Shown piece by piece: positions 22,169-57,052 of a stretch of DNA of 57,052 bases. A model generated the notes under the pieces. The model saw nothing but the letters and a program-made list of their open reading frames with translations, was not told where the DNA came from and made no database searches. This DNA comes from a virus. Location: positions 1 to 57,052 of IMG/VR virus record IMGVR_UViG_3300045988_165774, one strand, 5' to 3'. Within the stretch, counting starts at the first letter, position 1, and each line of letters opens with the position of its first letter. Made by a program: the position numbers and the translations under genes.

Positions 22169-23422
22169 TTATTCCCCGATATTATAAATTACATAGTCTA
22201 TTACCTTCCTATTTGCTTCGTCTACTTGTGTGTAGTCATATTCACGGTATTTCTCAATCATTAATCCAGTAACTGAATGCATTAATCCTTTGTCTATTGT
22301 GGAATCCGGTATTCTTAATTGTCCTGCAATTGTTGCCCATGAATGTCTGGCATAGGTAAAACTAAAATGAGGGATTTTATCTTTTTCATTTTTAATATTC
22401 CTATTCATTTCTTCTATGTCCGATTTTATCCTGTCATCGATAAAGTGTGTTAGCTGTTTGTGGTTTTTGTATTTAGTTTTAATCATTCTTATTTTATTTG
22501 GATCAGCATACTTTTTAATTATTTCTAATATTTCAGGTTGCAATTTTAACTTTAGACGTACCTCTCTTGCTGTACGTGCTGTTTTTAGACGACTAATATC
22601 TATATAATTTTCAAAGTAAGGTAAATAGAAAATATCCTTCATATTCATTCCACATAGAAAGAAGGATAAAAAGAAGAAATCACGTCCAATCCCAGGGCGT
22701 TGATAGAATTTTCGTAAGACTTCTATGTCAAGTTTTCTTATCTTTGCTTTATAATCCGATGGAATTGAAATGGCATCAAATGGGTAAAGATCCCGGCTTA
22801 TTACCTTTTGTCCAATTGCCACCTTAAAAACTCTTCGGATACAACGGAGATATTTTGTAAACGACACTTCTTTCTTATTTGTTCCTTTAAGAAAGAATTT
22901 TTTTAATTCTATAAGAGTATAGCTATCTATGTTCTGAAAGTAAATTTTATCAGTTTTAAAGAACTTTATTAATAAATTTTTGGTCCATCTGAATGTATCT
23001 GCGTACGCCTTTCTTTTCATTTCTTCAGTAACCTCTTCGGATTCAAGGTCAAATATAATTTTATCAATGGTTCTTATAAAATCTGTTGATTGTTCGACTG
23101 GTTTCCCTAAATTCAATCTTATTCTGTCATAAGACATGAAAATTTGCTTTAAGGTCATGACTGACATATCCTTAACGGATTCTCCCAATTCTTTATAATA
23201 ATCCTGATATCTGCCTTTTTGAGCAAATAAATCTGAGTTCCATTTCGCTGCCTCTGGAAATTCTTTCTTTATAATTCCATTCCCCTGATCAAAAAAACTG
23301 GGCTCAATATAGTAGTTAGTCGGAATAAAAGTAGGATTTTCCCCCTTTTTCTTAATCTTAATTTTAATGTTTCCTTTTCCTGTCTTTCCTGAAACATCCC
23401 TTAGCACGACACTTAATTCCAT
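22169..23422 (-). CDS. int: Tyrosine recombinase / phage integrase, 417 aa
   Basis: C-terminal catalytic segments ARHSWAT, GLMHS and KYREYDY. Adjacent to a tRNA-fragment attP. Confidence 0.9.
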   Translation of the reverse strand: MELSVVLRDVSGKTGKGNIKIKIKKKGENPTFIPTNYYIEPSFFDQGNGIIKKEFPEAAKWNSDLFAQKGRYQDYYKELGESVKDMSVMTLKQIFMSYDRIRLNLGKPVEQSTDFIRTIDKIIFDLESEEVTEEMKRKAYADTFRWTKNLLIKFFKTDKIYFQNIDSYTLIELKKFFLKGTNKKEVSFTKYLRCIRRVFKVAIGQKVISRDLYPFDAISIPSDYKAKIRKLDIEVLRKFYQRPGIGRDFFFLSFFLCGMNMKDIFYLPYFENYIDISRLKTARTAREVRLKLKLQPEILEIIKKYADPNKIRMIKTKYKNHKQLTHFIDDRIKSDIEEMNRNIKNEKDKIPHFSFTYARHSWATIAGQLRIPDSTIDKGLMHSVTGLMIEKYREYDYTQVDEANRKVIDYVIYNIGE

Positions 23423-26710: not shown

Positions 26711-26783
26711 GCCTACTTAGCTCAGTTGGTAGAGCATCGGTTTTGTACTCCGAAGGTCATCCGTTCGAACCGGACAGTAGGCT
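26711..26783 (+). tRNA. tRNA-Thr (anticodon TGT), 73 nt, CCA not encoded
   Basis: Hand fold: GCCTACT / TA / GCTC-AGTTGGTA-GAGC / A / TCGGT-TTTGTAC-TCCGA / AGGTC / ATCCG-TTCGAAC-CGGAC / AGTAGGC / T. Mismatches at 31-39 (U-U) and 49-65 (A-C). Confidence 0.75.
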
Positions 26784-26885
26784 CAAAAGTAAGGCCGTTT
26801 AGTTTGATGACGTGACGGCCTTACAAAAAACTCCAAGCTCTTTGACATGTTGACAGACAATAAAAAACACGCAGTTTGTCGCTGC

Positions 26886-35714: not shown

Positions 35715-36104
35715 ATGGAAAAAATCACAGACAAAATTAAATCCTTCGAGGATGCTTGCAAGCATCTCAGACTTAACCCTAACGACCTGCCGGTTGTAGA
35801 TATGCTTCCGGAGAAAGATAGGAAATCAATCATAGCATTCTACAAACTGACAATTATCATCAGAGCATTGAATGAAGGTTGGGAGCCCGATTGGTCAAAT
35901 TGGGATGAATGGAAGTATTACAACTTGTTTTACGTCGAAAAAGGAGGAGACCAGCGTTCCTCCGGTTTTCGTTACGGCACTACAGACTTCGCGAGTACGC
36001 GCATGCACACCGGCTCTCGGCTTTGCTTTAAGAATATAGAATTAGCCAAATACGCCACAGAACAATTCAAAGAACTATATCGTGAATATTTACTCATTCT
36101 TTAA
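35715..36104 (+). CDS. Hypothetical protein, 129 aa (paralog A of a tandem pair)
   Basis: Shares SSGFRY...TGSRLC...(K/E)(E/D)LY(R/N)(E/D)Y with the next gene. Confidence 0.6.
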   Translation: MEKITDKIKSFEDACKHLRLNPNDLPVVDMLPEKDRKSIIAFYKLTIIIRALNEGWEPDWSNWDEWKYYNLFYVEKGGDQRSSGFRYGTTDFASTRMHTGSRLCFKNIELAKYATEQFKELYREYLLIL

Positions 36105-36114
36105 AAGAAAAAAC

Positions 36115-36591
36115 ATGAAGAAGACATTAGAGATAACGGAAGAACAAGCAAAGAAACTCTACTTTGAAGCATCCGAAAACTTCAAAGAAGTACTTGAATC
36201 GAACTTCGGGAAGACAACATTTCTGAAAAACTTTCAAGACGCAGTAAAGACATACTATGATGCTTGTGAAATCATAGGAGAAAAGCCGATTGACGAACAG
36301 CATTTAATGGACTGTGGACTCGGAAAGTCGGAAATCGCATTCATGAAATTGAAAACAATCTTCAAAGCTGCAAATAAAATGAACAACGATTGGAAAGCAG
36401 ATTACTCCAATTCAAGCCAGTATAAATATTATCCGTATTTTGTTTGGCGTTCCTCCGGTTTTCGTTACTGCGATGCGAGCTACGCGCATACGTACGCGTA
36501 CACCGGCTCTCGGCTTTGCTGCGGTACATCTGATGATGCAGAATACATCGGAAAAAAATTTGAAGATTTATATAACGATTATTTTGGATAA
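36115..36591 (+). CDS. Hypothetical protein, 158 aa (paralog B; ATG at 36115)
   Basis: Same C-terminal motif set as 35715..36104. The track start at 36082 is non-ATG and overlaps the previous gene. Confidence 0.6.
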   Translation: MKKTLEITEEQAKKLYFEASENFKEVLESNFGKTTFLKNFQDAVKTYYDACEIIGEKPIDEQHLMDCGLGKSEIAFMKLKTIFKAANKMNNDWKADYSNSSQYKYYPYFVWRSSGFRYCDASYAHTYAYTGSRLCCGTSDDAEYIGKKFEDLYNDYFG

Positions 36592-36671: not shown

Positions 36672-36702
36672 TTTGCAATTATGGATAATAGCCGTATATT
36701 TG
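36672..36702 (+). promoter_or_regulatory. Promoter of cassette 1 (TTTG-N19-TATATTTG)
   Basis: Exact consensus boxes at 36672-75 and 36695-702. Confidence 0.6.
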
Positions 36703-36712
36703 TGGTGTTCAA

Positions 36713-36888
36713 CTGCCAAGACGAACAACATAAATTACGTTAGAAGGGTGTTTTTATGCCCTATTATTTCTTGAATTTTCAAGTAAAATATAGGCCGTCG
36801 AAATTCCTTCGTTGCATAGCCCTTCATCGTAAGTGTTATGTTCGTCTTGGCAGATAACGGGAAAGTCGGCGGCTTTCTTATTTTTATC
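36713..36888 (+). promoter_or_regulatory. Structured leader RNA of cassette 1 (long-range helix plus terminator-like helix)
   Basis: 36713-27 pairs with 36839-53 (15 bp). 36794-801 pairs with 36866-73 and is followed by a T-rich tract. The 12-mer TGCCAAGACGAA is repeated at the start codon (36911-22). Confidence 0.6.
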
Positions 36889-36909
36889 AACTTATAATTC
36901 ATCAACGTA

Positions 36910-37206
36910 ATGCCAAGACGAAGTGAATCTGTAAGTAATGTGAATCATAGTACCATTACAGCACGTCCACCCCGACGAAATGAGGGTCAATTACTTTCTC
37001 AGATAAAAGAGTTGCAAGCACAACTAAATCAAGTAAGACAAAAATTTGAAATCGAAAAGAGCTGCAAGAATAAAGCCTATTACTTTATTCTCAGTTCCGG
37101 AAACTTTCAAAAATTCGCGGAGTTTCATAAAAAGCATAGGGCAAATCTCGACTATCACGGGGCTTGCCTCGCGCAGCTTTATCTTGATTCATTTACTACA
37201 AAATAA
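36910..37206 (+). CDS. Small basic/coiled-coil protein with a conserved Cys/His C-terminal domain, 98 aa (family member 1)
   Basis: RPPRRNEG motif, heptad region, then CKNKAYYFILSSGNFQKFAEFHKKHRANLDYHGACLAQLYLDSFTTK. Paralogs at 44614 and 54062. Confidence 0.7.
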   Translation: MPRRSESVSNVNHSTITARPPRRNEGQLLSQIKELQAQLNQVRQKFEIEKSCKNKAYYFILSSGNFQKFAEFHKKHRANLDYHGACLAQLYLDSFTTK

Positions 37207-37213
37207 CCCTACC

Positions 37214-37939
37214 ATGAAAGAATTAGTTTTAAATTCTAATGGTCAACCTGTGACCAATAGTGTACTTGTTGCCGAAAAATTTGGCAAACAACACAAAAAC
37301 GTAATTGCCTCAATAAGAGCAATTATTGAACAAGCTGAAAATTCAGCCCGTCAAATGTTTGTTGAAAGTCAGTATGTTGACAACAAAGGCGAATCACGAC
37401 CAATGTTTATAATGAATCGTGACGGCTTTACCCTTTTAGCAATGGGATTCACCGGAAAGGAAGCATTGCAATTTAAGCTTGAATTTATCAATGCTTTCAA
37501 TAAAATGGAAAAACAGTTAAAGGAACAAAGCAATCTTTCCCCGGCTGAAATGCTTCTCAAACAATGTCAGATCATGGTAGAACATGAAAAGAGATTGTCA
37601 ACCGTTGAGCAGAAAGTTAATGAGGTATTAGCTATTCGGGAAGAAGCGCAGAAAGACATGTTATCACTCCCTCTTTCTACTGATGCTGTTCCTGAATTAA
37701 GCATGAGAGATAAAGTCCGTGCTTTGGTAAACAAATATTCCATGCACTTCAATGTTCCTCAAAAGAATGTGTGGGACCATATTTACCAAACCCTTTATTA
37801 CAATTATCATATTGCACTGCGTTCCTACGCCAGAAAGAAAAATGAGAGTCTTATTGATGTAGCTGAACGTGTAGGCGCATTGGATAAAATGTACGCAATT
37901 ATTTCAAACCTATCAAGGCAAAACGGATTAGTAGCATAA
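37214..37939 (+). CDS. Rha-family phage regulatory protein, 241 aa (ATG at 37214)
   Basis: N-terminus VTNSVLVAEKFGKQHKNVIASIRAII matches the Phage_pRha pattern. The longer track ORF (37046) overlaps the previous gene out of frame. Confidence 0.75.
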   Translation: MKELVLNSNGQPVTNSVLVAEKFGKQHKNVIASIRAIIEQAENSARQMFVESQYVDNKGESRPMFIMNRDGFTLLAMGFTGKEALQFKLEFINAFNKMEKQLKEQSNLSPAEMLLKQCQIMVEHEKRLSTVEQKVNEVLAIREEAQKDMLSLPLSTDAVPELSMRDKVRALVNKYSMHFNVPQKNVWDHIYQTLYYNYHIALRSYARKKNESLIDVAERVGALDKMYAIISNLSRQNGLVA

Positions 37940-37963
37940 ATTCCTCTTTAATAAAGAATCAGC

Positions 37964-38146
37964 ATGAAAAATAACTACACAGAAGAACAAAAAGAAAAGG
38001 TATGCGATTTAGTTTATAAATGGATGGTTGAGAATAATTGTCATTCGGCAGAACATGCATCGCAGGATGACGATTGTACGATCAATGCCATCGACTTAGT
38101 ATGTGAATTAGCTGAAATAGTTGGAATACCTTACGATGAAGATTAA
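37964..38146 (+). CDS. Hypothetical protein, 60 aa
   Basis: ORF track. Confidence 0.45.
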   Translation: MKNNYTEEQKEKVCDLVYKWMVENNCHSAEHASQDDDCTINAIDLVCELAEIVGIPYDED

Positions 38147-38149
38147 CCT

Positions 38150-38644
38150 ATGCCCCGCACCCCGAAACCCAAACAACCAAAACCGATCATTTCCCGTCTG
38201 TCAACAAACTATTCCGACTGCCGGAAATGTATCTACTACCAACCGTGGAAATTCGGATTGGTTGATTGCCCGTTTTCGGTGGTGCCGCATGAAAACTGCG
38301 TGGACAGAAAAATTGAATGTGTAAATTATAAAAAAAACATGATTGAAAATACTATTAAAAAAATTGAGCAATGGGTTGTCGACAGAAACCTGCATACCCA
38401 GGATCCAAAAGTACAGATGTGTAAAACAGTTGAAGAACTCGGAGAACTGGCCCAGGCAATAAACAAAGGCGATAGGGAAAAACAGACAGACAGCATCGGG
38501 GATACGGTTGTCACTCTCATCTGTATATCAAAACAACTGGGTATTGATTTCAGTGAATGCGTTGAATATGCATACAACGAAATCAAAGACCGGAAGGGTA
38601 AACTTATCAACGGGATATTTGTAAAAGAGGCGGATTTTGTATAA
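38150..38644 (+). CDS. MazG-like nucleotide pyrophosphohydrolase with a Cys-rich N-terminal extension, 164 aa
   Basis: EELGELAQAINKGDREKQTDSIGDTVVTLICI and NEIKDRKGK are MazG-type. The first 63 aa carry 5 Cys. An alternative start is M64 at 38339. Confidence 0.65.
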   Translation: MPRTPKPKQPKPIISRLSTNYSDCRKCIYYQPWKFGLVDCPFSVVPHENCVDRKIECVNYKKNMIENTIKKIEQWVVDRNLHTQDPKVQMCKTVEELGELAQAINKGDREKQTDSIGDTVVTLICISKQLGIDFSECVEYAYNEIKDRKGKLINGIFVKEADFV

Positions 38645-38663
38645 AAAATTAAATAAAAAAATC

Positions 38664-38948
38664 ATGATAGCACTAATTATCACATCCTTATCAGGAGACT
38701 ACTCCGGTATTGCTAAAGAAGTAGAAAAACAACTCCAAAACCAAGACAAAAAGCAAGAATCCGATGAAGTTGTAAGTATCCATCAGTTCGACATGCTTTC
38801 CCGGTCCTATGATGCAAAATTTGACGAATGCGAAAAACTCAAAGCCCGAAATCAGGAATTGGAAAAGTCAAACATTAAACTCATGGAAACGGTTAACAAG
38901 TACCAGTACTTTATCGAGTGCCAACGAAACGAAATAGATAAACTATGA
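38664..38948 (+). CDS. Hypothetical protein, 94 aa (ATG at 38664)
   Basis: Hydrophobic N-terminus then coiled coil. The track start is TTG at 38637. Confidence 0.5.
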   Translation: MIALIITSLSGDYSGIAKEVEKQLQNQDKKQESDEVVSIHQFDMLSRSYDAKFDECEKLKARNQELEKSNIKLMETVNKYQYFIECQRNEIDKL

Positions 38949-38958
38949 ATTTTTAAAC

Positions 38959-39207
38959 ATGAAAGCAGAAGATTTAATAACCAGAAATACTTTATCCAAT
39001 ATTATTTTGGATAAAAATCAACATGTAGTGTCTATTCCAATTGCAATTACTGCTATAAACATGGCTAGGTCCGAAGAACGTAAGAAAGCTATTAAGGCAT
39101 TCAAAATTGCAACAGATGGTTATTTGAACTGTGGAGGGACTAATCGTAAATCAGAGGTATTAGCACTATTTAAAGATATGCTAGGGTGTTCTAATATTAA
39201 AATTTGA
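38959..39207 (+). CDS. Hypothetical protein, 82 aa
   Basis: ORF track. Confidence 0.5.
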   Translation: MKAEDLITRNTLSNIILDKNQHVVSIPIAITAINMARSEERKKAIKAFKIATDGYLNCGGTNRKSEVLALFKDMLGCSNIKI

Positions 39208-39210
39208 AAC

Positions 39211-39495
39211 ATGGAATACGACGAATTACTCAAAGACCCGCGCTGGCAACGTAAACGGTTAGAAGCAATGCAAGCGGACAAATTCACATGCCAGATGTGT
39301 TTTCGTTCAGACAAGCCTTTAAACGTCCATCACAAAAAGTATATCCAAGGCGCTGCTCCATGGGAATACGATACAAGTGATTTAATCACCCTTTGTGAAA
39401 AGTGCCATGCAAAATATCATCGGGATGTTACTAAAACTAAAATAATGGCTAATATGCTTATAAACATTTCTGAACTATTAAAATCAGCAATATGA
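39211..39495 (+). CDS. HNH-like zinc-binding protein, 94 aa
   Basis: CQMC ... VHHKKY ... LCEKCHAKYH. Confidence 0.55.
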   Translation: MEYDELLKDPRWQRKRLEAMQADKFTCQMCFRSDKPLNVHHKKYIQGAAPWEYDTSDLITLCEKCHAKYHRDVTKTKIMANMLINISELLKSAI

Positions 39496-39496
39496 T

Positions 39497-40255
39497 ATGG
39501 CGAGACAATTAAAAGAAGGATTGAAATATTTTTCTTTTGATGTTGATTTTTTTGATGATGAGAAAATAGGTGCAATTTCTGGAGAGTTTGGGATAAAAGG
39601 AGAAATTACAGCAATAAAGCTGCTATGTGCGGTATACCGGAATGGATACTTCGCTGTGTGGAATGAGCCGTTAAAAATGAAACTTTTAAAATCCCTTCCA
39701 GGAATAAACTCTGAATTACTGGACCAGATCGTGAATCGCTTAGTTAGGTGGGGGTTCTTTGACAGCTCCTGCTTCAGCTCGGTAAAGATTCTGACTAGTG
39801 AAGGTATTCAGAAGCGATATTTTGAAGCCATTAAAAGAAGAAAGCCCAAGGAAGAATATCCTTATTTACTTATTAATGTAGACAATAATGCAATAAATGT
39901 ATGCAAAAATGACAAAAATGTATACAAAAGTACACAAAGGAAAGGAAAGAAAATAAATAATCCCCCTATAATCCCCCTTTTGGATTTTTCGTCGGAAGGA
40001 ATAATCCCGATTGAAAATTTGAAGGAAAGAATATTTTCCGAAGAAACGGCATGGATTGAGACCATAGCAATGAAGCAACAGCTTAAACCCGATGAAATAA
40101 TTAAGTGGGTGAACGATTTTTTTGACGAACTCGAGTGTATAGGTGAAAACATGAAAAGCCTAAAAGATTTCAAATCCCACTTTTTCAGGTGGCTTAAAAT
40201 CCAACTAAAAAACAGAAAGGAGGAAAAAGATGACGGAAGACTTGAAAGTTGGTAG
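39497..40255 (+). CDS. Replication initiation / helicase-loading protein (DnaD-like, Lin1244-type N-terminal domain), 252 aa
   Basis: LKYFSFDVDFFDDEKIGAISGEFGIKGEITAIKLLCAVYRNGYF pattern. Directly upstream of dnaB. Confidence 0.6.
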   Translation: MARQLKEGLKYFSFDVDFFDDEKIGAISGEFGIKGEITAIKLLCAVYRNGYFAVWNEPLKMKLLKSLPGINSELLDQIVNRLVRWGFFDSSCFSSVKILTSEGIQKRYFEAIKRRKPKEEYPYLLINVDNNAINVCKNDKNVYKSTQRKGKKINNPPIIPLLDFSSEGIIPIENLKERIFSEETAWIETIAMKQQLKPDEIIKWVNDFFDELECIGENMKSLKDFKSHFFRWLKIQLKNRKEEKDDGRLESW

Positions 40256-41594
40256 ATCAAAATCGACAATTACAGAAAAGGCTGTTTTAGGGGCGATGTT
40301 AGTGTCCCCTGATATAATTACCGATGTCGTATCGAAATTAAGCGCAGACTCTTTCTTTGATGTCAAAAACAGGATAATTTTTGAAGCCATTCTAAAACTG
40401 AATGACGATAACACGCCTGTAGACCTGATTTCCGTTGCCGAACAACTGAAACAATCCGGTAAAATCGAAGAAGCAGGAAATTACAGCTATCTGGCAGAAC
40501 TTACCAACCAGTCAGGATTAGGAATTGCGCGGATAGAATACTACTGCAAAATACTCTTACAATTACAGGTCGAACGCCTGTTGATAGACATGAGTATGGA
40601 AATTATCCGTATGTCTGACGGAACAAACGACGTATCAGATACGATTTCATTTGCTGACAGGCAACTACAACGCATCAATGATGTACTTTCCTGCAACAAC
40701 AGAATGGAGCACATTTCAACGGCAATAGAGAAAGCAGCCGATGAATCAATTATCCGGACAAACAATCGAAGGCAGGGCAAAATGACCGGTGTAACATCCG
40801 GATTAAAAGAACTCGACACGATGACCTCCGGATTCAGGGGTGGAGAATTAATAATCCTTGCCGCCCGTCCGGCGATGGGCAAGACGGCAATGTTGTTGTA
40901 TTTCGCAAAAAGTGCTGCAAGACAGGGTATTCCAGTCTGTATATACTCCCTCGAAATGGACAGCATTAGTCTTGCCGACAGGCTAATCCTTTCAGAGACG
41001 GACATCGAAGCGGACAGATACCGGAACGGATACATATCCAACGAAGAGTTCAACCAAATCGCATCGGCAAAGAAAAGACTTTCCGAACTGCCGATATACG
41101 TTGACGACAACCCGATAGTATCCATGCGCTACATCCGTGCACACTCTAAGAGAATGTCAAAGCAGGGAAAATGCGGATTGATACTCGTAGATTACTTACA
41201 ACTCGCTGATATGGGCGAAAAGGGGAAAAACCGGGAACAGGAAGTTGCACAGGCGAGCAGACAGGCAAAGATAATCGCGAAAGAGCTTAATGTGCCTTTT
41301 ATCCTTTTATCCCAGCTTAACAGAGCTTGTGAAGAACGGGCGGATAAAAAGCCACAGCTATCCGACCTTCGTGAATCAGGAGCCATCGAGCAAGATGCAG
41401 ATAAGGTTATATTCGTTTATCGTCCGGAATATTACAAGCTGAAAGATCCTCATAACAACCCGATAACCGGAGAAGGTGCGCTCATAATGGCTAAACAGCG
41501 CAACGGAGCCGTAGGTGACGTGAAATTCAGGTATAATGAAAGTCTCACGAAGATATTCGACCACAACACAAACGAATCCGGAAGACCATTTTAA
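40230..41594 (+). CDS. dnaB: Replicative DNA helicase DnaB, 454 aa
   Basis: GFRGGELIILAARPAMGKTA (Walker A), LILVDYLQL (Walker B), LSQLNR, LRESGAIEQDAD. Confidence 0.95.
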   Translation: MTEDLKVGRSKSTITEKAVLGAMLVSPDIITDVVSKLSADSFFDVKNRIIFEAILKLNDDNTPVDLISVAEQLKQSGKIEEAGNYSYLAELTNQSGLGIARIEYYCKILLQLQVERLLIDMSMEIIRMSDGTNDVSDTISFADRQLQRINDVLSCNNRMEHISTAIEKAADESIIRTNNRRQGKMTGVTSGLKELDTMTSGFRGGELIILAARPAMGKTAMLLYFAKSAARQGIPVCIYSLEMDSISLADRLILSETDIEADRYRNGYISNEEFNQIASAKKRLSELPIYVDDNPIVSMRYIRAHSKRMSKQGKCGLILVDYLQLADMGEKGKNREQEVAQASRQAKIIAKELNVPFILLSQLNRACEERADKKPQLSDLRESGAIEQDADKVIFVYRPEYYKLKDPHNNPITGEGALIMAKQRNGAVGDVKFRYNESLTKIFDHNTNESGRPF

Positions 41595-44380: not shown

Positions 44381-44411
44381 TTTGATTTGTCGGAAAAATG
44401 CCGTATGTTTG
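44381..44411 (+). promoter_or_regulatory. Promoter of cassette 2 (TTTG-N19-TATGTTTG)
   Basis: Boxes at 44381-84 and 44404-11. Confidence 0.6.
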
Positions 44412-44422
44412 CTTTCGATTCA

Positions 44423-44592
44423 GACCAAGAATCTTTTAGTGTAATTGAAAGTGCAGCATTTTTTTATGCTGTTATGTGATGTATCTTATCTAAGAAAATA
44501 AGCTACTCAAATCCCTGCGGATTGCTGTGCTTTACTGTACACAATTGATTCTTGGTCGAATTAGGGAGGCGAGTAGCTTTCTTTATTTTATT
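44423..44592 (+). promoter_or_regulatory. Structured leader RNA of cassette 2
   Basis: GACCAAGAATC 44423-33 pairs with GATTCTTGGTC 44547-57. AGCTACTC 44501-08 pairs with GAGTAGCT 44571-78 and is followed by a T-rich tract. The 11-mer recurs at 44616-26 over the start region. Confidence 0.6.
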
Positions 44593-44613
44593 AATTTCAA
44601 ATTTCATACGCGA

Positions 44614-44961
44614 ATGACCAAGAATCGTGAAAATTTGAAAGCTGCTATCAGTGTAGCATCTATTCAACGTCCACCCCGACGAAACGAGGGTAAACTACTG
44701 CAATTAGAGCGTGAAATCAAGACGCTCAAATCCGAAAACCAGGAATTAAAAACGGAACTGGCTGAACAGAAAAGGCAGAACATTCTGGAAAAGCAGAAGA
44801 AAGAGGAAGAAAAACGGTGTAAGAATCGAGCCTATTACTTTATCCTAAGCGATGGTGCTTTCCAAAGGTTTGCCGAGTTCCATAAAACACACCGGGCAAA
44901 TCTCGACTATCATGGGGCTTGTCTGGCGCAGCTTTATCTTGATTCATTTACTACAAAATAA
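44614..44961 (+). CDS. Small basic/coiled-coil Cys/His protein, 115 aa (family member 2; ATG at 44614)
   Basis: RPPRRNEG, coiled coil, then CKNRAYYFILSDGAFQRFAEFHKTHRANLDYHGACLAQLYLDSFTTK. The GTG-started track extension covers the leader. Confidence 0.7.
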   Translation: MTKNRENLKAAISVASIQRPPRRNEGKLLQLEREIKTLKSENQELKTELAEQKRQNILEKQKKEEEKRCKNRAYYFILSDGAFQRFAEFHKTHRANLDYHGACLAQLYLDSFTTK

Positions 44962-44967
44962 CTTACC

Positions 44968-45738
44968 ATGAAAGAATTAGTTTTATTTGACAAAACTCAA
45001 AATAGTATTTTGGGTAATGTCAGATCGGACGGCGACATGCTTAGTCTGACAGATTTATGGAAAGCGGCTAATAGCCCAAATAAAAAAGACCCATCTACAT
45101 GGCAACGCCGTGAATCAACAATTGAACTTATTGATACAGTGTGCAATTTTTTAAATACCCTCAAAATGGGGGTTTTGAAATCTAAGCGAGGGAAATCAGA
45201 TGGAGGGACATGGGCGCATAAAAATTTAGCACTTGCTTATGCAAAATGGTTGGATCCCAAACTCCATATTCTAATAAACGAGGTTTTCTTCCAGCGTATC
45301 GAAGAAGAAAAAAATCCCGACCTTATAGCAGATCGGTACATTAAAGCCTACAAAAAGAGAGGTAAGGATGAAAAATGGATTCAAGAACGTTTTGAAGGGA
45401 AAGTAGTACGTAATACATTTACTTCTACTCTTGCAAAACATGGTGTAAAACATGATGGTTTCCGGCAATGTACGAATGCGATTTACTCCCCTTTATTTGG
45501 CGGTAAAACTGATGTAATCAGACAAAAGAAAAACTTACCGGAGAAAGCTAATATCCGTGATAATCTTTCCCGGCTTGAACTTATGTCAGTGAAATTTGCT
45601 GAAGAATTGGCTTCGGAAAATATTAAGAACAATAATCTACAAGGCAACAATGAATGTGCAAAAGCAAGTTTTATTGCTTCAAACGCGGTAAAAGATTGTG
45701 TTTTAAAAAGCAGACAGAAAATAAATCAAACAATATAA
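44968..45738 (+). CDS. KilA-N domain DNA-binding protein, 256 aa
   Basis: LSLTDLWKAANSP ... GGTWAHKNLALAYAKWLDPKLHILINEVF. Confidence 0.7.
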   Translation: MKELVLFDKTQNSILGNVRSDGDMLSLTDLWKAANSPNKKDPSTWQRRESTIELIDTVCNFLNTLKMGVLKSKRGKSDGGTWAHKNLALAYAKWLDPKLHILINEVFFQRIEEEKNPDLIADRYIKAYKKRGKDEKWIQERFEGKVVRNTFTSTLAKHGVKHDGFRQCTNAIYSPLFGGKTDVIRQKKNLPEKANIRDNLSRLELMSVKFAEELASENIKNNNLQGNNECAKASFIASNAVKDCVLKSRQKINQTI

Positions 45739-48015: not shown

Positions 48016-48786
48016 TTACTTAGTTTGTTTCCTTCTAGGTGGTATTTTGGGAGACTTCATTCCGTCAATATGTTCAAATAGAGAGTTATCTACATGAGCC
48101 ATCATAGGATCCAAGATAAAATCAATGCCTTCCCTTCTCGCTAATTTAGATGCTGGAACAAAATCAGCATCACCAGATATAAGTACAATTCTATCAACAA
48201 AATGCTTTAATGATAAAGAAGCAATATCTACCCCTATCTTCATATCTATACTTTTTTGCCTTAATTCGTAATAAACATCACTTTCTTGTAAGTCCTCTAT
48301 TTTCAATGAACCAGATAATAATTCCTTTATTTTATTTGGTCTTATTTGCCAATTGCCAGAATCCTTAAGATATCCTAGTCTAAGTGCAACTTTTCTTTTT
48401 TGTTTTAAGGCTTCAAATATTTTATTCCTAAATATAGCTTCAGGACTTCTCTCAAAAACAATACATTTTTTAGAAATAGGATTATGAACTCTTTTTGAAA
48501 AAGGTACACAGTCGTAGAAAAATATACGATAAAGATAATTTTCTTTCCCAACATGTGAATGAGCTAATGTATAAATGTCATCAGCAACTTCCTCAGGAGT
48601 TTTGTTTTTTCCCTTATTATATAAATAATTATATCTTTTAATAAAAAATCCTCCGTCTATTAGAACAGCTATTTTGACTGGTGCACTAAAATTAGATTCT
48701 GGCTTATTGTTTGATTTCATATCATTATAAAAAACAAAGGCTCTTGGGTCGGCATGCTCATTATTAAACCAAAATTGGTAGAACAT
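48016..48786 (-). CDS. NYN/LabA-like (PIN-fold) RNase domain protein, 256 aa
   Basis: KIAVLIDGGFF ... RIVLISGDADFVPASKLARREGIDF pattern. Isolated AT-rich minus-strand gene. Confidence 0.65.
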   Translation of the reverse strand: MFYQFWFNNEHADPRAFVFYNDMKSNNKPESNFSAPVKIAVLIDGGFFIKRYNYLYNKGKNKTPEEVADDIYTLAHSHVGKENYLYRIFFYDCVPFSKRVHNPISKKCIVFERSPEAIFRNKIFEALKQKRKVALRLGYLKDSGNWQIRPNKIKELLSGSLKIEDLQESDVYYELRQKSIDMKIGVDIASLSLKHFVDRIVLISGDADFVPASKLARREGIDFILDPMMAHVDNSLFEHIDGMKSPKIPPRRKQTK

Positions 48787-49813: not shown

Positions 49814-50968
49814 ATGAACCCTTCAAACAAACTCACAACAGAACAGTTTATTTCCAAAGCAAAATCTATTCATGGTGATAAATTTGATTACTCAAAGACC
49901 AAGTATGTCAATGGTGAAACAAAAGTTTGCATAATTTGTCCTACTCATGGCGAATCGTGGATATTTCCTAATCAACATCTTATAGGATTTGGTTGCCGAA
50001 GATGTGGGTATGAAAACCGAAAAAAGTCTAAATGCAAACCAACAGAAGTTTTTATAAAGTCCGCAAAGAAAGTTCATGGAGATTTATATGATTACTCTAT
50101 GACTATTTATAGAGGGCAAAAGAAACCTATAACTTTTATTTGTCCCAAACATGGAACTATAACAATGAATGCTGGGAATCACCTACACGGTCATGGTTGC
50201 CCAAAATGTGGAATAGAGAAACGATCTAATTCTCTATTGTCCACAACAGAGTCTTTTATTGAACGGGCTACGAAAGTCCATAACGGGAAATACGATTATT
50301 CCAAGGCAGTATATCAAGGTATTAGTACTAAGACCTGCATAACCTGTCCTAAACACGGTGAGTTTTGGCAAACACCTAACAGCCACTTAAATGGAGCAGA
50401 ATGTCCTAAATGCGGATATTTAAAGACAAAGAGCAATGTGTGTGGATCAGGCATAAACGACATTGATCACTATGCTACTTCTATATGCTATAGGAAGTGG
50501 AAGTCGATATTGGAACGTACTTCTCCAACATATAAACATAAGGCATACGATAAAGTCTATATTTGCGATGAATGGCGTATATTTTCAAACTTTAAGGAGT
50601 GGTTTGATAAAAACTACATTGAGGGAGGTGCTATTGACAAAGATTTATTGTCACCTCCAGATAATAAGATTTACTCACCACGTACTTGTTGCTTCTTGCC
50701 TCGTATTATCAACAACGCCATAAAGAAATCCCCAACAAATAATAAAACCGGCATAAGAACGACATCGAATGGGCGTTATCGTGTTATCCTATCTGCTAAT
50801 TCTAAACAATCCCTTGTTGGATATTTCAATTCTTTAGAAGAAGCTCGACTTGCCTACAAGCTGGCTAAAAAACAATACATCAAAGAACTCTCTGAAAAGT
50901 ATTTCAGAGAGGGCAAGATAACCGAGAGGGTATATAATGCCCTAATGAAATACGAGATTGTGGATTAA
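49814..50968 (+). CDS. Zinc-ribbon-repeat protein with a C-terminal AP2-like DNA-binding domain (homing-endonuclease-associated architecture), 384 aa
   Basis: Four repeats of F..KA..VHG.KYDYS...Y......CP.HG......HL.G.GCP.CG. C-terminus TGIRTTSNGRYRVILSANSKQSLVGYFNSLEEARLAYKLA is AP2-like. Confidence 0.55.
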   Translation: MNPSNKLTTEQFISKAKSIHGDKFDYSKTKYVNGETKVCIICPTHGESWIFPNQHLIGFGCRRCGYENRKKSKCKPTEVFIKSAKKVHGDLYDYSMTIYRGQKKPITFICPKHGTITMNAGNHLHGHGCPKCGIEKRSNSLLSTTESFIERATKVHNGKYDYSKAVYQGISTKTCITCPKHGEFWQTPNSHLNGAECPKCGYLKTKSNVCGSGINDIDHYATSICYRKWKSILERTSPTYKHKAYDKVYICDEWRIFSNFKEWFDKNYIEGGAIDKDLLSPPDNKIYSPRTCCFLPRIINNAIKKSPTNNKTGIRTTSNGRYRVILSANSKQSLVGYFNSLEEARLAYKLAKKQYIKELSEKYFREGKITERVYNALMKYEIVD

Positions 50969-53786: not shown

Positions 53787-53819
53787 GTTGTGAATATCAA
53801 AAAATATTTCATACATTTG
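53787..53819 (+). promoter_or_regulatory. Promoter of cassette 3 (GTTG-N21-TACATTTG)
   Basis: -7 box at 53812-19. The -33 element is only TTG and the spacing is 21 nt. Confidence 0.45.
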
Positions 53820-53823
53820 TCTT

Positions 53824-54036
53824 GCTTAATCTTCTAATGACTGGCGGAGTAAGAGTACCCGCTGTATGGCGGTTTTTTTTATGCCTTATTGATTTGTATT
53901 TTCCATACTTTGTATTTTGTTGTTTGGAAAGGAAAATATTTGTCTAACGGCGTATACCCCCGTAAATCTGTTGTAATGGCAGATTTTAGCCAGTCATGAG
54001 GTGATTAAGCAGCGGGAAAGGTACGCCGTTTTTCTG
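53824..54036 (+). promoter_or_regulatory. Structured leader RNA of cassette 3
   Basis: GCTTAATC 53824-31 plus ATGACTGGC 53837-45 pair with GCCAGTCAT 53989-97 plus GATTAAGC 54003-10. AACGGCGTA 53946-54 pairs with TACGCCGTT 54022-30 and is followed by TTTT. Small hairpin CCGCT-GTAT-GGCGG plus T8 at 53859-80. Confidence 0.55.
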
Positions 54037-54061
54037 TACCTAAGTGCTTAATAAATATATC

Positions 54062-54349
54062 ATGACAAACACAAATCAAACCACCAACCATGGGAAAGGC
54101 ACAGACAATGTGCGTCACACTCACGAAACGGGCGAAATCTTATCACTAAAGCAGCAGCTTGAAACCTACAAAAGGCTGTTTGAAATCGAAAAGAATTGTA
54201 AGAATCAGGCTTATTTCTTCATTCTTTCATGCGGACATTTTGAGGAATACCGCGGATATTGCAAAACGCATCCTACAAATGTAGATTATCATTCTGCGTG
54301 TGTGGATGTTTTCAGACTTCAACATTTAAAAAGAGAAAACCATGAATGA
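54062..54349 (+). CDS. Small coiled-coil Cys/His protein, 95 aa (family member 3; ATG at 54062)
   Basis: CKNQAYFFILSCGHFEEYRGYCKTHPTNVDYHSACVDVF aligns with the C-terminal domain of the 36910 and 44614 proteins. Confidence 0.65.
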   Translation: MTNTNQTTNHGKGTDNVRHTHETGEILSLKQQLETYKRLFEIEKNCKNQAYFFILSCGHFEEYRGYCKTHPTNVDYHSACVDVFRLQHLKRENHE

Positions 54350-54962
54350 GTTGATTAAGATTGTGGAGAATGACGGTAAGAAAGCCGTTTCTGCACGGGA
54401 GCTTTACGAAAAATTAGGGTTTGCGCCTCAGCATTGGGCTAATTGGTATAAAAAGAATATTACTAATAATTCTTTTGCTGTTGAAAATGAAGATTATGCA
54501 CAACTCCCACTAAGTGGGAGAACAATTGATTTTGCCCTCTCTATCGACTTTGCTAAACGCCTTTCCATGATGGCACGTACCGAAACCGGTGAACAAATAC
54601 GTAATTATTTTATCGAAATAGAAAAACGTGCAACCAAACCATTAAGTCAGCTTGACATTTTAGCTCAGTCAATCCAAATCCTGCAAGCACAGGAAAAACG
54701 TATTTCAGAGATAGATGATCGAGTTAAAGTTATTGAGGCAAAACAGACTACACACCAAAACTGGTTTACCATTGCCGGATATGGAACACTTCTTAAAATA
54801 CAGGTCGGAATAAAACTGGCAGCAAGTTTGGGAAGGAAGGCATGTAATCTTTGCAGACAACTTGGCATTGAACCGGAGGAAATACCAGATCCGCGATTCG
54901 GGAAAGTCAAAACCTATCCCGAAAATGTTTTAAAGCAGGTATTTGATATGCCAATTAACTAA
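54342..54962 (+). CDS. AntA/AntB-type phage antirepressor-like DNA-binding protein, 206 aa
   Basis: VSARELYEKLGFAPQHWANWYKKNI ... FAVENEDYA ... DFALSIDFAKRLSMM pattern. Confidence 0.7.
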   Translation: MNELIKIVENDGKKAVSARELYEKLGFAPQHWANWYKKNITNNSFAVENEDYAQLPLSGRTIDFALSIDFAKRLSMMARTETGEQIRNYFIEIEKRATKPLSQLDILAQSIQILQAQEKRISEIDDRVKVIEAKQTTHQNWFTIAGYGTLLKIQVGIKLAASLGRKACNLCRQLGIEPEEIPDPRFGKVKTYPENVLKQVFDMPIN

Positions 54963-56546: not shown

Positions 56547-57005
56547 TTATAAACAATATTTTTTATAGTTCTCGACAAACTCCTTTACGGTCCCTCTGCC
56601 TAATGGCGTATTGTAATATTGTTTCCAGTATTCACCCATCGCCCAAACATCCTTATTCGAAGGTAATGCCTCCTTTACACGCAAATAATGTATGCGGGTC
56701 ATACAGATCATCAGCTTTTTGTTATCTACAAGCATTTCAGGTTCCAAAGTTACAACACTGGATGCTTTCATTACTTTCCCCATTAGTTCCGGTTTATGCC
56801 GGAGAAAATTAACCACAATATCATTGAAGGTTGCCGGCTCCATCTGCCCATATCCTAAAGCCGGACCACCGCCAATTTGCCGGGTGTACTTAAAATTGCT
56901 TTCCTGAGCAAACGTCCCCATGATAAGATCTCTTGCATTGTCAGAGTACAAGCCTGTTTCTTTCAGCGTTTCGGTTATTAACCTTCTCCATTCCTCTTTG
57001 TTCAT
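56547..57005 (-). CDS. Endolysin, lytic transglycosylase-like, 152 aa
   Basis: GTFAQESNFKYTRQIGGGPALGYGQME contains the catalytic Glu-Ser context of SLT-type enzymes. First gene of the lysis cassette. Confidence 0.6.
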   Translation of the reverse strand: MNKEEWRRLITETLKETGLYSDNARDLIMGTFAQESNFKYTRQIGGGPALGYGQMEPATFNDIVVNFLRHKPELMGKVMKASSVVTLEPEMLVDNKKLMICMTRIHYLRVKEALPSNKDVWAMGEYWKQYYNTPLGRGTVKEFVENYKKYCL

Positions 57006-57052
57006 ATTGTTTTATATTTCTAAATTATTCTTTTGTATTCTCAAAAAAAAAC
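56954..57052. repeat. Terminal direct repeat copy 2 (identical to 1..99)
   Basis: See copy 1. Confidence 0.9.

Follow-up and report, generated by a model that had tools for sequence, protein, structure and literature searches.

The question raised by positions 36672 to 37939 of the viral record IMGVR_UViG_3300045988_165774 is what a leader of some 200 nucleotides (nt) does in front of a small open reading frame (ORF) and a Rha-domain antirepressor-type gene of a temperate gut Bacteroidales phage. The window, which is the whole stretch of DNA that was analysed, comprises 57,052 nt and contains two further cassettes of the same kind. Antirepressor control decides whether a prophage stays silent, and for the temperate phages that abound in gut Bacteroidales our knowledge of lysis-lysogeny control is very limited. 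The leader contains one antisense element (M) that is complementary both to an upstream element (E1) and to the start-codon region of the small ORF (E3). Each cassette is probably a same-strand antisense control module of an antirepressor-type operon, like those of phage P1 (immI), P4 and Gifsy-1. The elements of cassette 1 are as follows.

36672-36702, + strand: predicted promoter of the Bacteroidota type (TTTG 36672-75, N19, TATATTTG 36695-702)
36706-36727, + strand: 5'-terminal hairpin P1 (TGTTC 36706-10 / GAACA 36723-27), moderately supported, which would hold E1 in its loop and 3' strand
36713-27, + strand: decoy element E1, CTGCCAAGACGAACA, 15/15 complementary to M
36745-36762, + strand: hairpin P2, with the conserved U-rich loop UUUUUAU
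36770-36783, + strand: hairpin P3, present in most clusters of related leaders, weakly supported
36792-36875, + strand: C4-like domain, in which the closing stem H2a + H2b encloses hairpin P4 and the hairpin that displays M
36792-801 / 36866-75, + strand: outer closing stem H2a (10 bp)
36804-07 / 36860-63, + strand: inner closing stem H2b
36814-41, + strand: hairpin P4, inside the H2 domain
36839-36853, + strand: antisense element M, TGTTCGTCTTGGCAG, complementary over 15 bp to E1 and over 12 bp to the start-codon region
36859-36888, + strand: terminator-like compact hairpin T (36859-79) with a U-rich tract (36874-88), from a terminator scan
36890-36936, + strand: translation-start hairpin P5 (stem 36890-901 / 36924-36), with the ATG and E3 in its loop
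36911-22, + strand: target element E3, TGCCAAGACGAA, an exact repeat of the E1 12-mer across the ATG at 36910
36910-37206, + strand: small ORF of 98 amino acids, codons 1-4 of which lie within E3
37214-37939, + strand: Rha-domain antirepressor-type gene, which starts 7 nt past the small ORF

The transcript is predicted to start at about 36707. An earlier note on this DNA had given exact positions for the promoter, the three elements and a second helix, and all of them are correct; the 12-mer across the start codon and the 15/15 complementarity of E1 and M were re-found exactly. Within the 57-kb window the 12-mer of cassette 1 occurs three times (two sense, one antisense), always inside the cassette 1 leader. 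The note had also described the same architecture at 44.4 kb and 53.8 kb. A profile of the leader (nhmmer) finds exactly three copies in the window, and these two places, cassettes 2 and 3, are the sole matches besides cassette 1. Both follow the same plan with other sequences (leaders at 44381-44627 and 53812-54066), and the pairing of cassette 3 is bipartite.

44381-45738, + strand: cassette 2 (promoter 44381-411)
44423-33, + strand: E1 of cassette 2, GACCAAGAATC
44500-08 / 44571-79, + strand: H2a of cassette 2
44512-16 / 44563-67, + strand: H2b of cassette 2
44546-58, + strand: M of cassette 2
44615-27, + strand: E3 of cassette 2 (ATG 44614)
44614-44961, + strand: small ORF of cassette 2
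44968-45738, + strand: KilA-N gene of cassette 2
53812-54962, + strand: cassette 3 (-7 box 53812-19)
53824-31 and 53837-45, + strand: E1 of cassette 3, in two parts
53946-55 / 54021-30, + strand: H2a of cassette 3
53989-97 and 54003-10, + strand: M of cassette 3, in two parts
54046-52 and 54060-66, + strand: E3 of cassette 3, in two parts (ATG 54062)
54062-54349, + strand: small ORF of cassette 3
54342-54962, + strand: AntA gene of cassette 3, with an 8-nt overlap with the small ORF

The cassettes of one genome pair poorly with one another. An M element forms at most 8 bp with a foreign E3 as compared to 10.9 bp on average with its own. Word searches in the window found no extra target in the phage genome on which such an RNA could act in trans, each word being confined to its own cassette. 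The three pairing words would keep the three cassettes independent.

The relatives of the leader were gathered by a search with the small ORF, which gave 80 viral, 6 genomic and 80 metagenomic loci (166 in all, designated by L numbers where they must be told apart). The genomic loci come from Butyricimonas, Tannerella, a Bacteroidales metagenome-assembled genome, Chryseobacterium and Cytophagales, and some relatives sit in bacterial contigs of 100-340 kb. A full-length leader is present in 154 of the 166 loci (nhmmer), corresponding to 58 distinct sequences, which fall into 32 clusters at 92% identity. In the alignment, all 58 share the columns of the TAnnTTTG box and of the ATG. Otherwise, the conserved leader sequence is limited to the hairpin loops and a pairing core, CCAA/UUGG. 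The deposited phage genomes gave no match in blastn with the leader or in tblastn with the small ORF, and the three-element leader is absent from the distant small-ORF homologues of Chryseobacterium, Cytophagales and termite gut. The leader is a new, well-supported RNA family of 32 clusters, fit for deposition in Rfam. Second nhmmer matches in L043-L045 and related loci, considered as possible orphan leaders, were rejected; they consist of the shared promoter only, before another gene. One of them (L044, 344-408) has the same promoter sequence, TTTGAAATTACGGATAATAGTTGTATGTTTG, directly driving that other gene without a leader. A short metagenomic contig (L140, 1170-1230) retains the hairpin at the start site together with ATGCCAAGAACA of the small ORF, while the leader is replaced by unrelated sequence with no M and no E1. 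Here a target stands without an antisense in cis; the contig may be a recombinant, or the gene may be regulated in trans.

Plain whole-leader alignments (MAFFT, hmmalign) misplace M and the interior hairpins, and we therefore used anchor-based alignments and tests of own versus foreign helices. Pairs were counted in gap-free mini-alignments anchored on the constant CCAA/UUGG core of 27 cluster representatives. E1:M is paired at 98.0% of positions and M:E3 at 99.3%, and 8 of the 11 pairs are changed on both sides in each helix. Controls in which the register was slid gave 31-47% pairing, and none of 500 shuffles matched the observed covariation score. With the own partner E1:M forms 12.4 bp and M:E3 11.6 bp, as compared to 8.1 and 7.4 bp with foreign partners. 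Ten consecutive positions of M:E3 are paired in 100% of cases across 29 clusters, and in 29 of 32 clusters the U of the AUG is the first base of the target helix; the in-register conservation of E1:M is restricted to an 11-bp core. At least 12 different words are in use (CCAAGACGAA, GGCAAAGCGA, ACCAAGAAUC, CCAAAGAC, CCAACGAAA, CCAAACUC and GACUAUCA are examples), and within each leader all three elements share one word. A chance origin of the pairings is rejected by their recurrence in 154 loci and by the compensatory change that runs through both pairings. The earlier note had taken the joint change of the elements between two copies as a sign of a selected RNA structure, and had named homologous cassettes without the pairings or without compensatory changes as the observation that would speak against it. 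The relatives bear the proposal out: the three elements co-vary across 27-32 independent clusters, with the compensatory pairs given above and an asymmetry in favour of the + strand.

The asymmetry is seen in two ways. Where the helices depart internally from Watson-Crick pairing, the mismatch is G:U far more often than A:C (18:2 in E1:M and 23:0 in M:E3), and the helices are longer on the + strand than on the - strand (E1:M p = 0.03, M:E3 p = 0.002, H2 p = 0.002); the selected molecule is therefore the + strand RNA. The constraint is also on nucleic acid and not on protein. Cassettes 1 and 2 translate CCAAGA in different reading frames. The small proteins of L065 and L071 differ in codons 3-5 only, yet their words differ. 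Conversely, the leaders of L076 and L150 have the same specificity positions (4% of the aligned positions differ) and stand before genes of different domain composition, Bro-N+ANT and KilA-N. We take three-way complementarity, covariation and strand specificity as established. Diversifying selection on the variable positions was considered and found unsupported in close relatives, and we do not claim positive selection. At 70-80% identity the variable positions differ in 45% of cases as compared to 24% for the rest.

The second helix (H2) of the earlier note, with a core of GCCGTCGA (36794-801) paired with TCGGCGGC (36866-73) and followed by TTTCTTATTTTTATC, is real. It extends to 10 bp, co-varies and crosses the E1:M helix (H1). 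It is at least 9 bp long in 32/32 clusters, in about a dozen different sequences. RNAalifold on the plain MAFFT alignment gave 8 pairs, all 8 with double changes, and covariation reaches into the inner CUCCC/GGGAG extension. An attempt to anchor H2 at the ends of fitted helices gave inconsistent columns and was abandoned. When the H2 domain (about 85-95 nt) is folded in isolation, a closing stem around two hairpins is predicted in 27 of 30 representatives, and in 24 of the 30 the centre of M (UGGC or UUGGUC) forms the apical loop of the second hairpin. The note had called the helix terminator-like. A T-rich tract does follow H2 in all 32 clusters, but the terminator scan flags hairpin T (36859-79), which overlaps the 3' strand of H2 and competes with it for that strand. 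We prefer to see in H2 the stem that closes a C4-like domain of two hairpins. The GGGAG-like segment can take an upstream partner (H2b) or a downstream one (T); in the L029 and L047 types there is covariation for either choice.

The remaining hairpins are supported to differing degrees. P5 is found in 31 of 32 clusters (mean 8.8 bp) with a loop of about 20 nt that contains the start codon and E3; its stems co-vary (ATTTCGTT/AACGAAAT, AATTTCAA/TTGAAATT, AATACTT/AAGTATT). The stem of P2 co-varies as well (own 7.2 bp, foreign 5.3 bp). Compensatory stems are found for P1 in relatives (GTGCTC/GAGCAC, TCATACTT/AAGTATGA), with 5.6 bp for the own and 4.4 bp for the foreign partner and the own partner better in 21 of 32 clusters; its 5' strand may partly precede the transcript start. 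Two segments are near-invariant across clusters, the P2 loop UUUUUAU (36750-36757; usually followed by G) and AAAGAUAUAAGG before H2. Their conservation suggests possible recognition by a protein or a nuclease.

Folding of the whole leader places E1:M, lengthened to a long 5'/3' duplex, in the minimum free energy (MFE) structure of 32/32 clusters, with H2 excluded. The H1 state is predicted to be about 13 kcal/mol lower than the H2 state. The E1:M duplex is stronger than M:E3 in all 32 clusters (-25.9 and -19.2 kcal/mol). As H1 and H2 cross and both are under selection, they either alternate or form a pseudoknot.

The three small ORFs of the window are homologous to one another and match no Pfam or PHROG family. 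Their product had been described as a Cys/His protein, which was an over-reading; of the His and Cys residues just one each is invariant in the family, and many relatives have Ala or Tyr in place of the first Cys. The AlphaFold model, made with three sequences, is all-helical and of low confidence (predicted local distance difference test, pLDDT, 60). The Rha regulator named downstream of the cassette 1 small ORF stands (Pfam Phage_pRha, 3.9e-29; PHROG anti-repressor, 1.3e-46). Among 20 downstream genes tested, 15 encode KilA-N, Bro-N, Rha or AntA domains with or without ANT(KilAC), four encode NUMOD4-HNH endonucleases and one has no Pfam match. The NUMOD4-HNH homing endonuclease genes occupy the antirepressor position in L063 (1668-2225), L064 (1665-2222), L139 (1747-2388) and L145 (1668-2270). 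The distance from the stop of the small ORF to the start of the next gene is -35 to +17 nt, a spacing that points to translational coupling of the small ORF and the antirepressor.

The cassette (36710-38210, as compared with L004, L002 and L001) is an exchangeable allele and a mosaic hot spot. Flanks and promoter are 99-100% identical to L004 up to 36709, and identity falls to 68% at 36710-36809 and to about 50% in the antirepressor gene before returning to 98-100% after 38210. In L001 the leader and small ORF are 99-100% identical and the flanks are unrelated; only the N-terminal domain of its Rha gene is swapped, the C-terminal half being identical.

The layout recalls several phage systems. 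The GenBank record of phage P1 describes one transcript with a1, b1, c4 (77 nt), a2, b2, icd (73 amino acids) and the overlapping ant1, in which a1/b1 are putative C4 target sites and a2/b2 are targets for repression of icd and ant translation. The Rfam consensus of C4 (RF01695) has a closing stem around two hairpins, with a separate c4-a1b1 family (RF03163; clan CL00128). P1 and P7 are heteroimmune, as set by C4, and the complementary sequences are probably in loops (PMC12197685). The immI region of P1/P7 and the leader have the same order of promoter, upstream target copy (a1b1 or E1), antisense domain of about 80-90 nt, target at the translation start (a2b2 or E3), small ORF (icd with 73 amino acids, 78-115 here) and a closely adjoining antirepressor gene. 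The H2 domain has the C4 topology, with a long, interrupted closing stem around two hairpins and the antisense in a loop. As in P1/P7, the pairing sequences vary between related phages, here as alleles behind an identical promoter, and the bipartite pairing of cassette 3 resembles the a and b sites of P1. The differences are also clear. The target here is the AUG with codons 2-4 rather than the Shine-Dalgarno region, there is mostly one pairing of 11-15 nt rather than two of 7-8 nt, a U tract follows the domain (possibly a 3' end made by termination) where C4, which is processed by RNase P, has a CCA-like tail, and a genome carries three orthogonal copies. C4 is listed as a proteobacterial family (PMC2864571), unlike the Bacteroidota leader, and the Rfam models find no homology of sequence or structure between the two.

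In satellite phage P4, the CI RNA (seqB) pairs with seqA upstream and seqC downstream (PMC4825925, PMC3632133), and thus, as here, a single antisense element has two complementary sites on its own leader transcript, one on either side of it. However, the readout in P4 is premature transcription termination of the replication operon, with CI processed from the primary transcript, whereas the downstream site here is a start codon. In Gifsy-1, IsrK controls the orf45 start site, the antirepressor-like anrP is translationally coupled to orf45, and a fraction of the transcripts reads through the leader terminator (PMC4825925). Here too, alternative pairings of a 5' leader element would set the openness of a small upstream ORF to which the antirepressor is probably coupled; in Gifsy-1, however, activation comes from the short IsrK RNA in trans, and the partner in the inhibitory pairing is the 3' part of orf45, while for E1 activation in cis is predicted, through its hold on M. 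The Bacteroides small RNAs GibS, FopS, MasB and BatR repress by pairing next to the start codon (PMC11697453), the same mode of repression in Bacteroidota translation without Shine-Dalgarno pairing. They differ in being separate genes that act on unlinked mRNAs; the antisense here is within the leader of its own target, together with a decoy.

The earlier note had recognised no named riboswitch or attenuator class. Searches with Rfam agree as far as the name is concerned: the leader has no match at gathering score in the window, and at E <= 10 on the three leaders and E <= 1 on six diverse loci only chance-level matches appeared. As a positive control, phage P1 scored 68.8 bits with C4 and 51 bits with c4-a1b1. 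There is likewise no Rfam riboswitch match, and the downstream genes are of antirepressor type, not metabolic or transport genes. The layout, on the other hand, is that of P1/P7 C4, P4 CI and Gifsy-1 IsrK, so the leader is an analogue of a known kind and not a wholly new class. Our best reading is that it is probably a Bacteroidota variant of a C4-like antisense switch, either convergent or too distant to detect.

The antisense module would work as follows. A Bacteroidota promoter would give a leader of about 200 nt, and the 3' half of the leader would fold into the H2-closed domain of about 85 nt that shows M in a hairpin loop, followed by the U-rich tract. M would pair with the AUG and the first three to four codons of the small ORF, presented in the P5 loop, and would block 30S binding in an organism without Shine-Dalgarno pairing; via translational coupling, M:E3 would shut down the antirepressor-type gene as well. 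E1, which repeats the target in a stronger form at the very 5' end, would be a decoy in cis that competes for M. With E1:M formed, the start would be open; with E1 removed, occupied or out-competed, M would close it. Termination at the U tract and/or processing at the 5' side would yield M-bearing RNAs without free E1. Once released, these could close E3 in cis or in trans and capture the E1 of nascent RNAs, resulting in a pulse and then shut-off, and the distinct words may set heteroimmunity. The pairings, the C4-like H2 domain, the P5 hairpin, the preference for E1:M and the link to antirepressor-type genes in a temperate phage are observed; from these we infer that the RNA does switch, by control of termination or of translation. 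The weakest steps are the freeing of M from E1 and any action of an RNA in trans. A more ambitious form, in which an independently evolved C4-like RNA of about 85 nt acts in trans, in a word-specific manner, on the start codon and the 5' decoy of new transcripts as a programmable immunity code, with an antirepressor pulse and then bistable shut-off, three independent switches per genome and heteroimmunity between phages that are otherwise identical, is put forward only tentatively, and we regard it as possible rather than probable. The U tract behind the domain, the integrase and the replacement of alleles from the transcript start in near-identical phages bear only indirectly on a released RNA that gives immunity.

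Several points weigh against the antisense module. The promoter, transcript start, termination and processing are all predictions from sequence, and trans action of a released H2-domain RNA is a supposition. The predicted fold of the intact leader has M locked by E1 in all clusters, and repression needs a step that frees it. Nested folding does not separate alternation of H1 and H2 from a pseudoknot, and H2 and hairpin T both end at the same U tract, which makes read-through hard to account for. The M:E3 pairing of cassette 3 is weak (7 + 7 bp, -10 kcal/mol). The leader profile and the word searches found neither orphan targets nor orphan antisense domains in the window. Very close relatives differ at 1.3% of the variable positions as compared to 10.5% elsewhere, and in this group the words are conserved, not hypervariable. 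Finally, the C4, c4-a1b1 and IsrK models leave the leader undetected in the window, the three leaders and the six loci, and the likeness may be convergent.

The main alternative dispenses with any RNA in trans. It takes the leader to be an attenuator or riboregulator that works co-transcriptionally and in cis alone. Whether H1 or H2/T forms would set both termination and exposure of the start, as directed by a factor that reads the conserved loops, be it the small ORF product, a host RNA-binding protein, a ligand, temperature or the ribosome load. Two crossing helices that are both selected, a terminator-like hairpin with a conserved U tract and a GGGAG-like segment with alternative partners on either side speak for such a device; the near-invariant P2 loop UUUUUAU could be the binding site, and every word is restricted to its own cassette. 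On the other hand, no conserved multi-helix junction or pocket of the ligand-aptamer kind is evident, and the preference for H1 by about 13 kcal/mol in every cluster makes a simple equilibrium switch unlikely. The attenuator also leaves unexplained why near-identical phages carry different word alleles from the transcript start on, and why the antisense lies in a C4-like displayed loop. We consider it rather unlikely, less so than the two readings that remain.

One of these would make the leader an element of mRNA processing or stability, the long E1:M duplex being an RNase III-type site or a 5'-protecting helix and the match of M to the start codon secondary. The MFE folds, with a nearly continuous 5'/3' duplex of 25-35 bp and a 5' end that is predicted to be paired, would suit such an element. 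If only E1:M mattered, however, M:E3 would not be expected to be kept the more strictly (99.3%), nor would in-register conservation of E1:M be confined to 11 bp; H2 and P5 would be left without a role, and we hold this account to be improbable. Sites in the DNA are less probable still, to the point of being scarcely credible: operator half-sites for a DNA-binding protein of the cassette, or recombination sites of an invertible or deletable segment. The exact repeats of cassette 1 (two direct, one inverted) and the DNA-binding domains encoded downstream bring them to mind. Nevertheless, it is only on the + strand that departures between copies fit G:U pairing, the promoter is located beyond the repeats, and H2 and P5 co-vary independently of these repeats. 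The same word before Bro-N+ANT (L076) and KilA-N (L150) argues against protein-binding DNA sites, as do different words in small proteins that are alike but for codons 3-5. As for recombination, all 154 full-length leaders are collinear with no inverted variant, and no recombinase gene is adjacent, the sole integrase being 13 kb away.

If the antisense module is correct, the same-strand antisense design of P1, P7, P4 and Gifsy-1 also operates in a phylum with another promoter grammar and no Shine-Dalgarno pairing, where its target has become the start codon itself. The leader shares fold and layout with C4 but has an undetectable relation to it in sequence, which would mean convergence or deep homology. 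The module would offer a directly testable handle on prophage induction in gut bacteria, and the at least 12 natural, mutually non-pairing words could become orthogonal translational switches for Bacteroides engineering. Were the immunity code also true, phages of Bacteroidota would have their first described RNA-based immunity system, and with it a natural collection of orthogonal riboregulators suited to translation without Shine-Dalgarno pairing.

Circularly closed and circularly permuted, the window represents a complete phage genome of about 56,953 bp, with an exact 99-nt direct repeat at its ends (1-99 = 56954-57052). It encodes an integrase, and the phage is therefore temperate. The promoter pattern TTTG-N17-21-TAnnTTTG has 15 matches in the window as compared to 2.4 expected. 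The following features lie outside the three cassettes.

22169-23422, - strand: tyrosine integrase with Arm-DNA-bind_5 and Phage_int_SAM_5 domains
26711-26784, + strand: tRNA-Thr(UGU) gene, 3.3 kb from the integrase, which could be related to the attachment site

On the same strand downstream of cassette 1 (38150-41594) are a MazG-like gene, a replisome organiser (39497-40255) and a DnaB-like helicase (40230-41594), and the cassette 1 leader may gate a replication operon; in phage P1, immI is followed by kilA and repL, which recalls this order. Just upstream of cassette 1 are two adjacent paralogues of phrog_11581 (function unknown; 35715-36104 and 36082-36591), which have a 74-nt segment in common that is 80% identical (35954-36027 and 36447-36520). 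Between cassettes 2 and 3 is a gene for an NYN-domain (PIN-like ribonuclease) protein (48016-48786, - strand); that it might be a leader-processing nuclease is pure speculation. An HNH endonuclease is encoded at 49814-50968.

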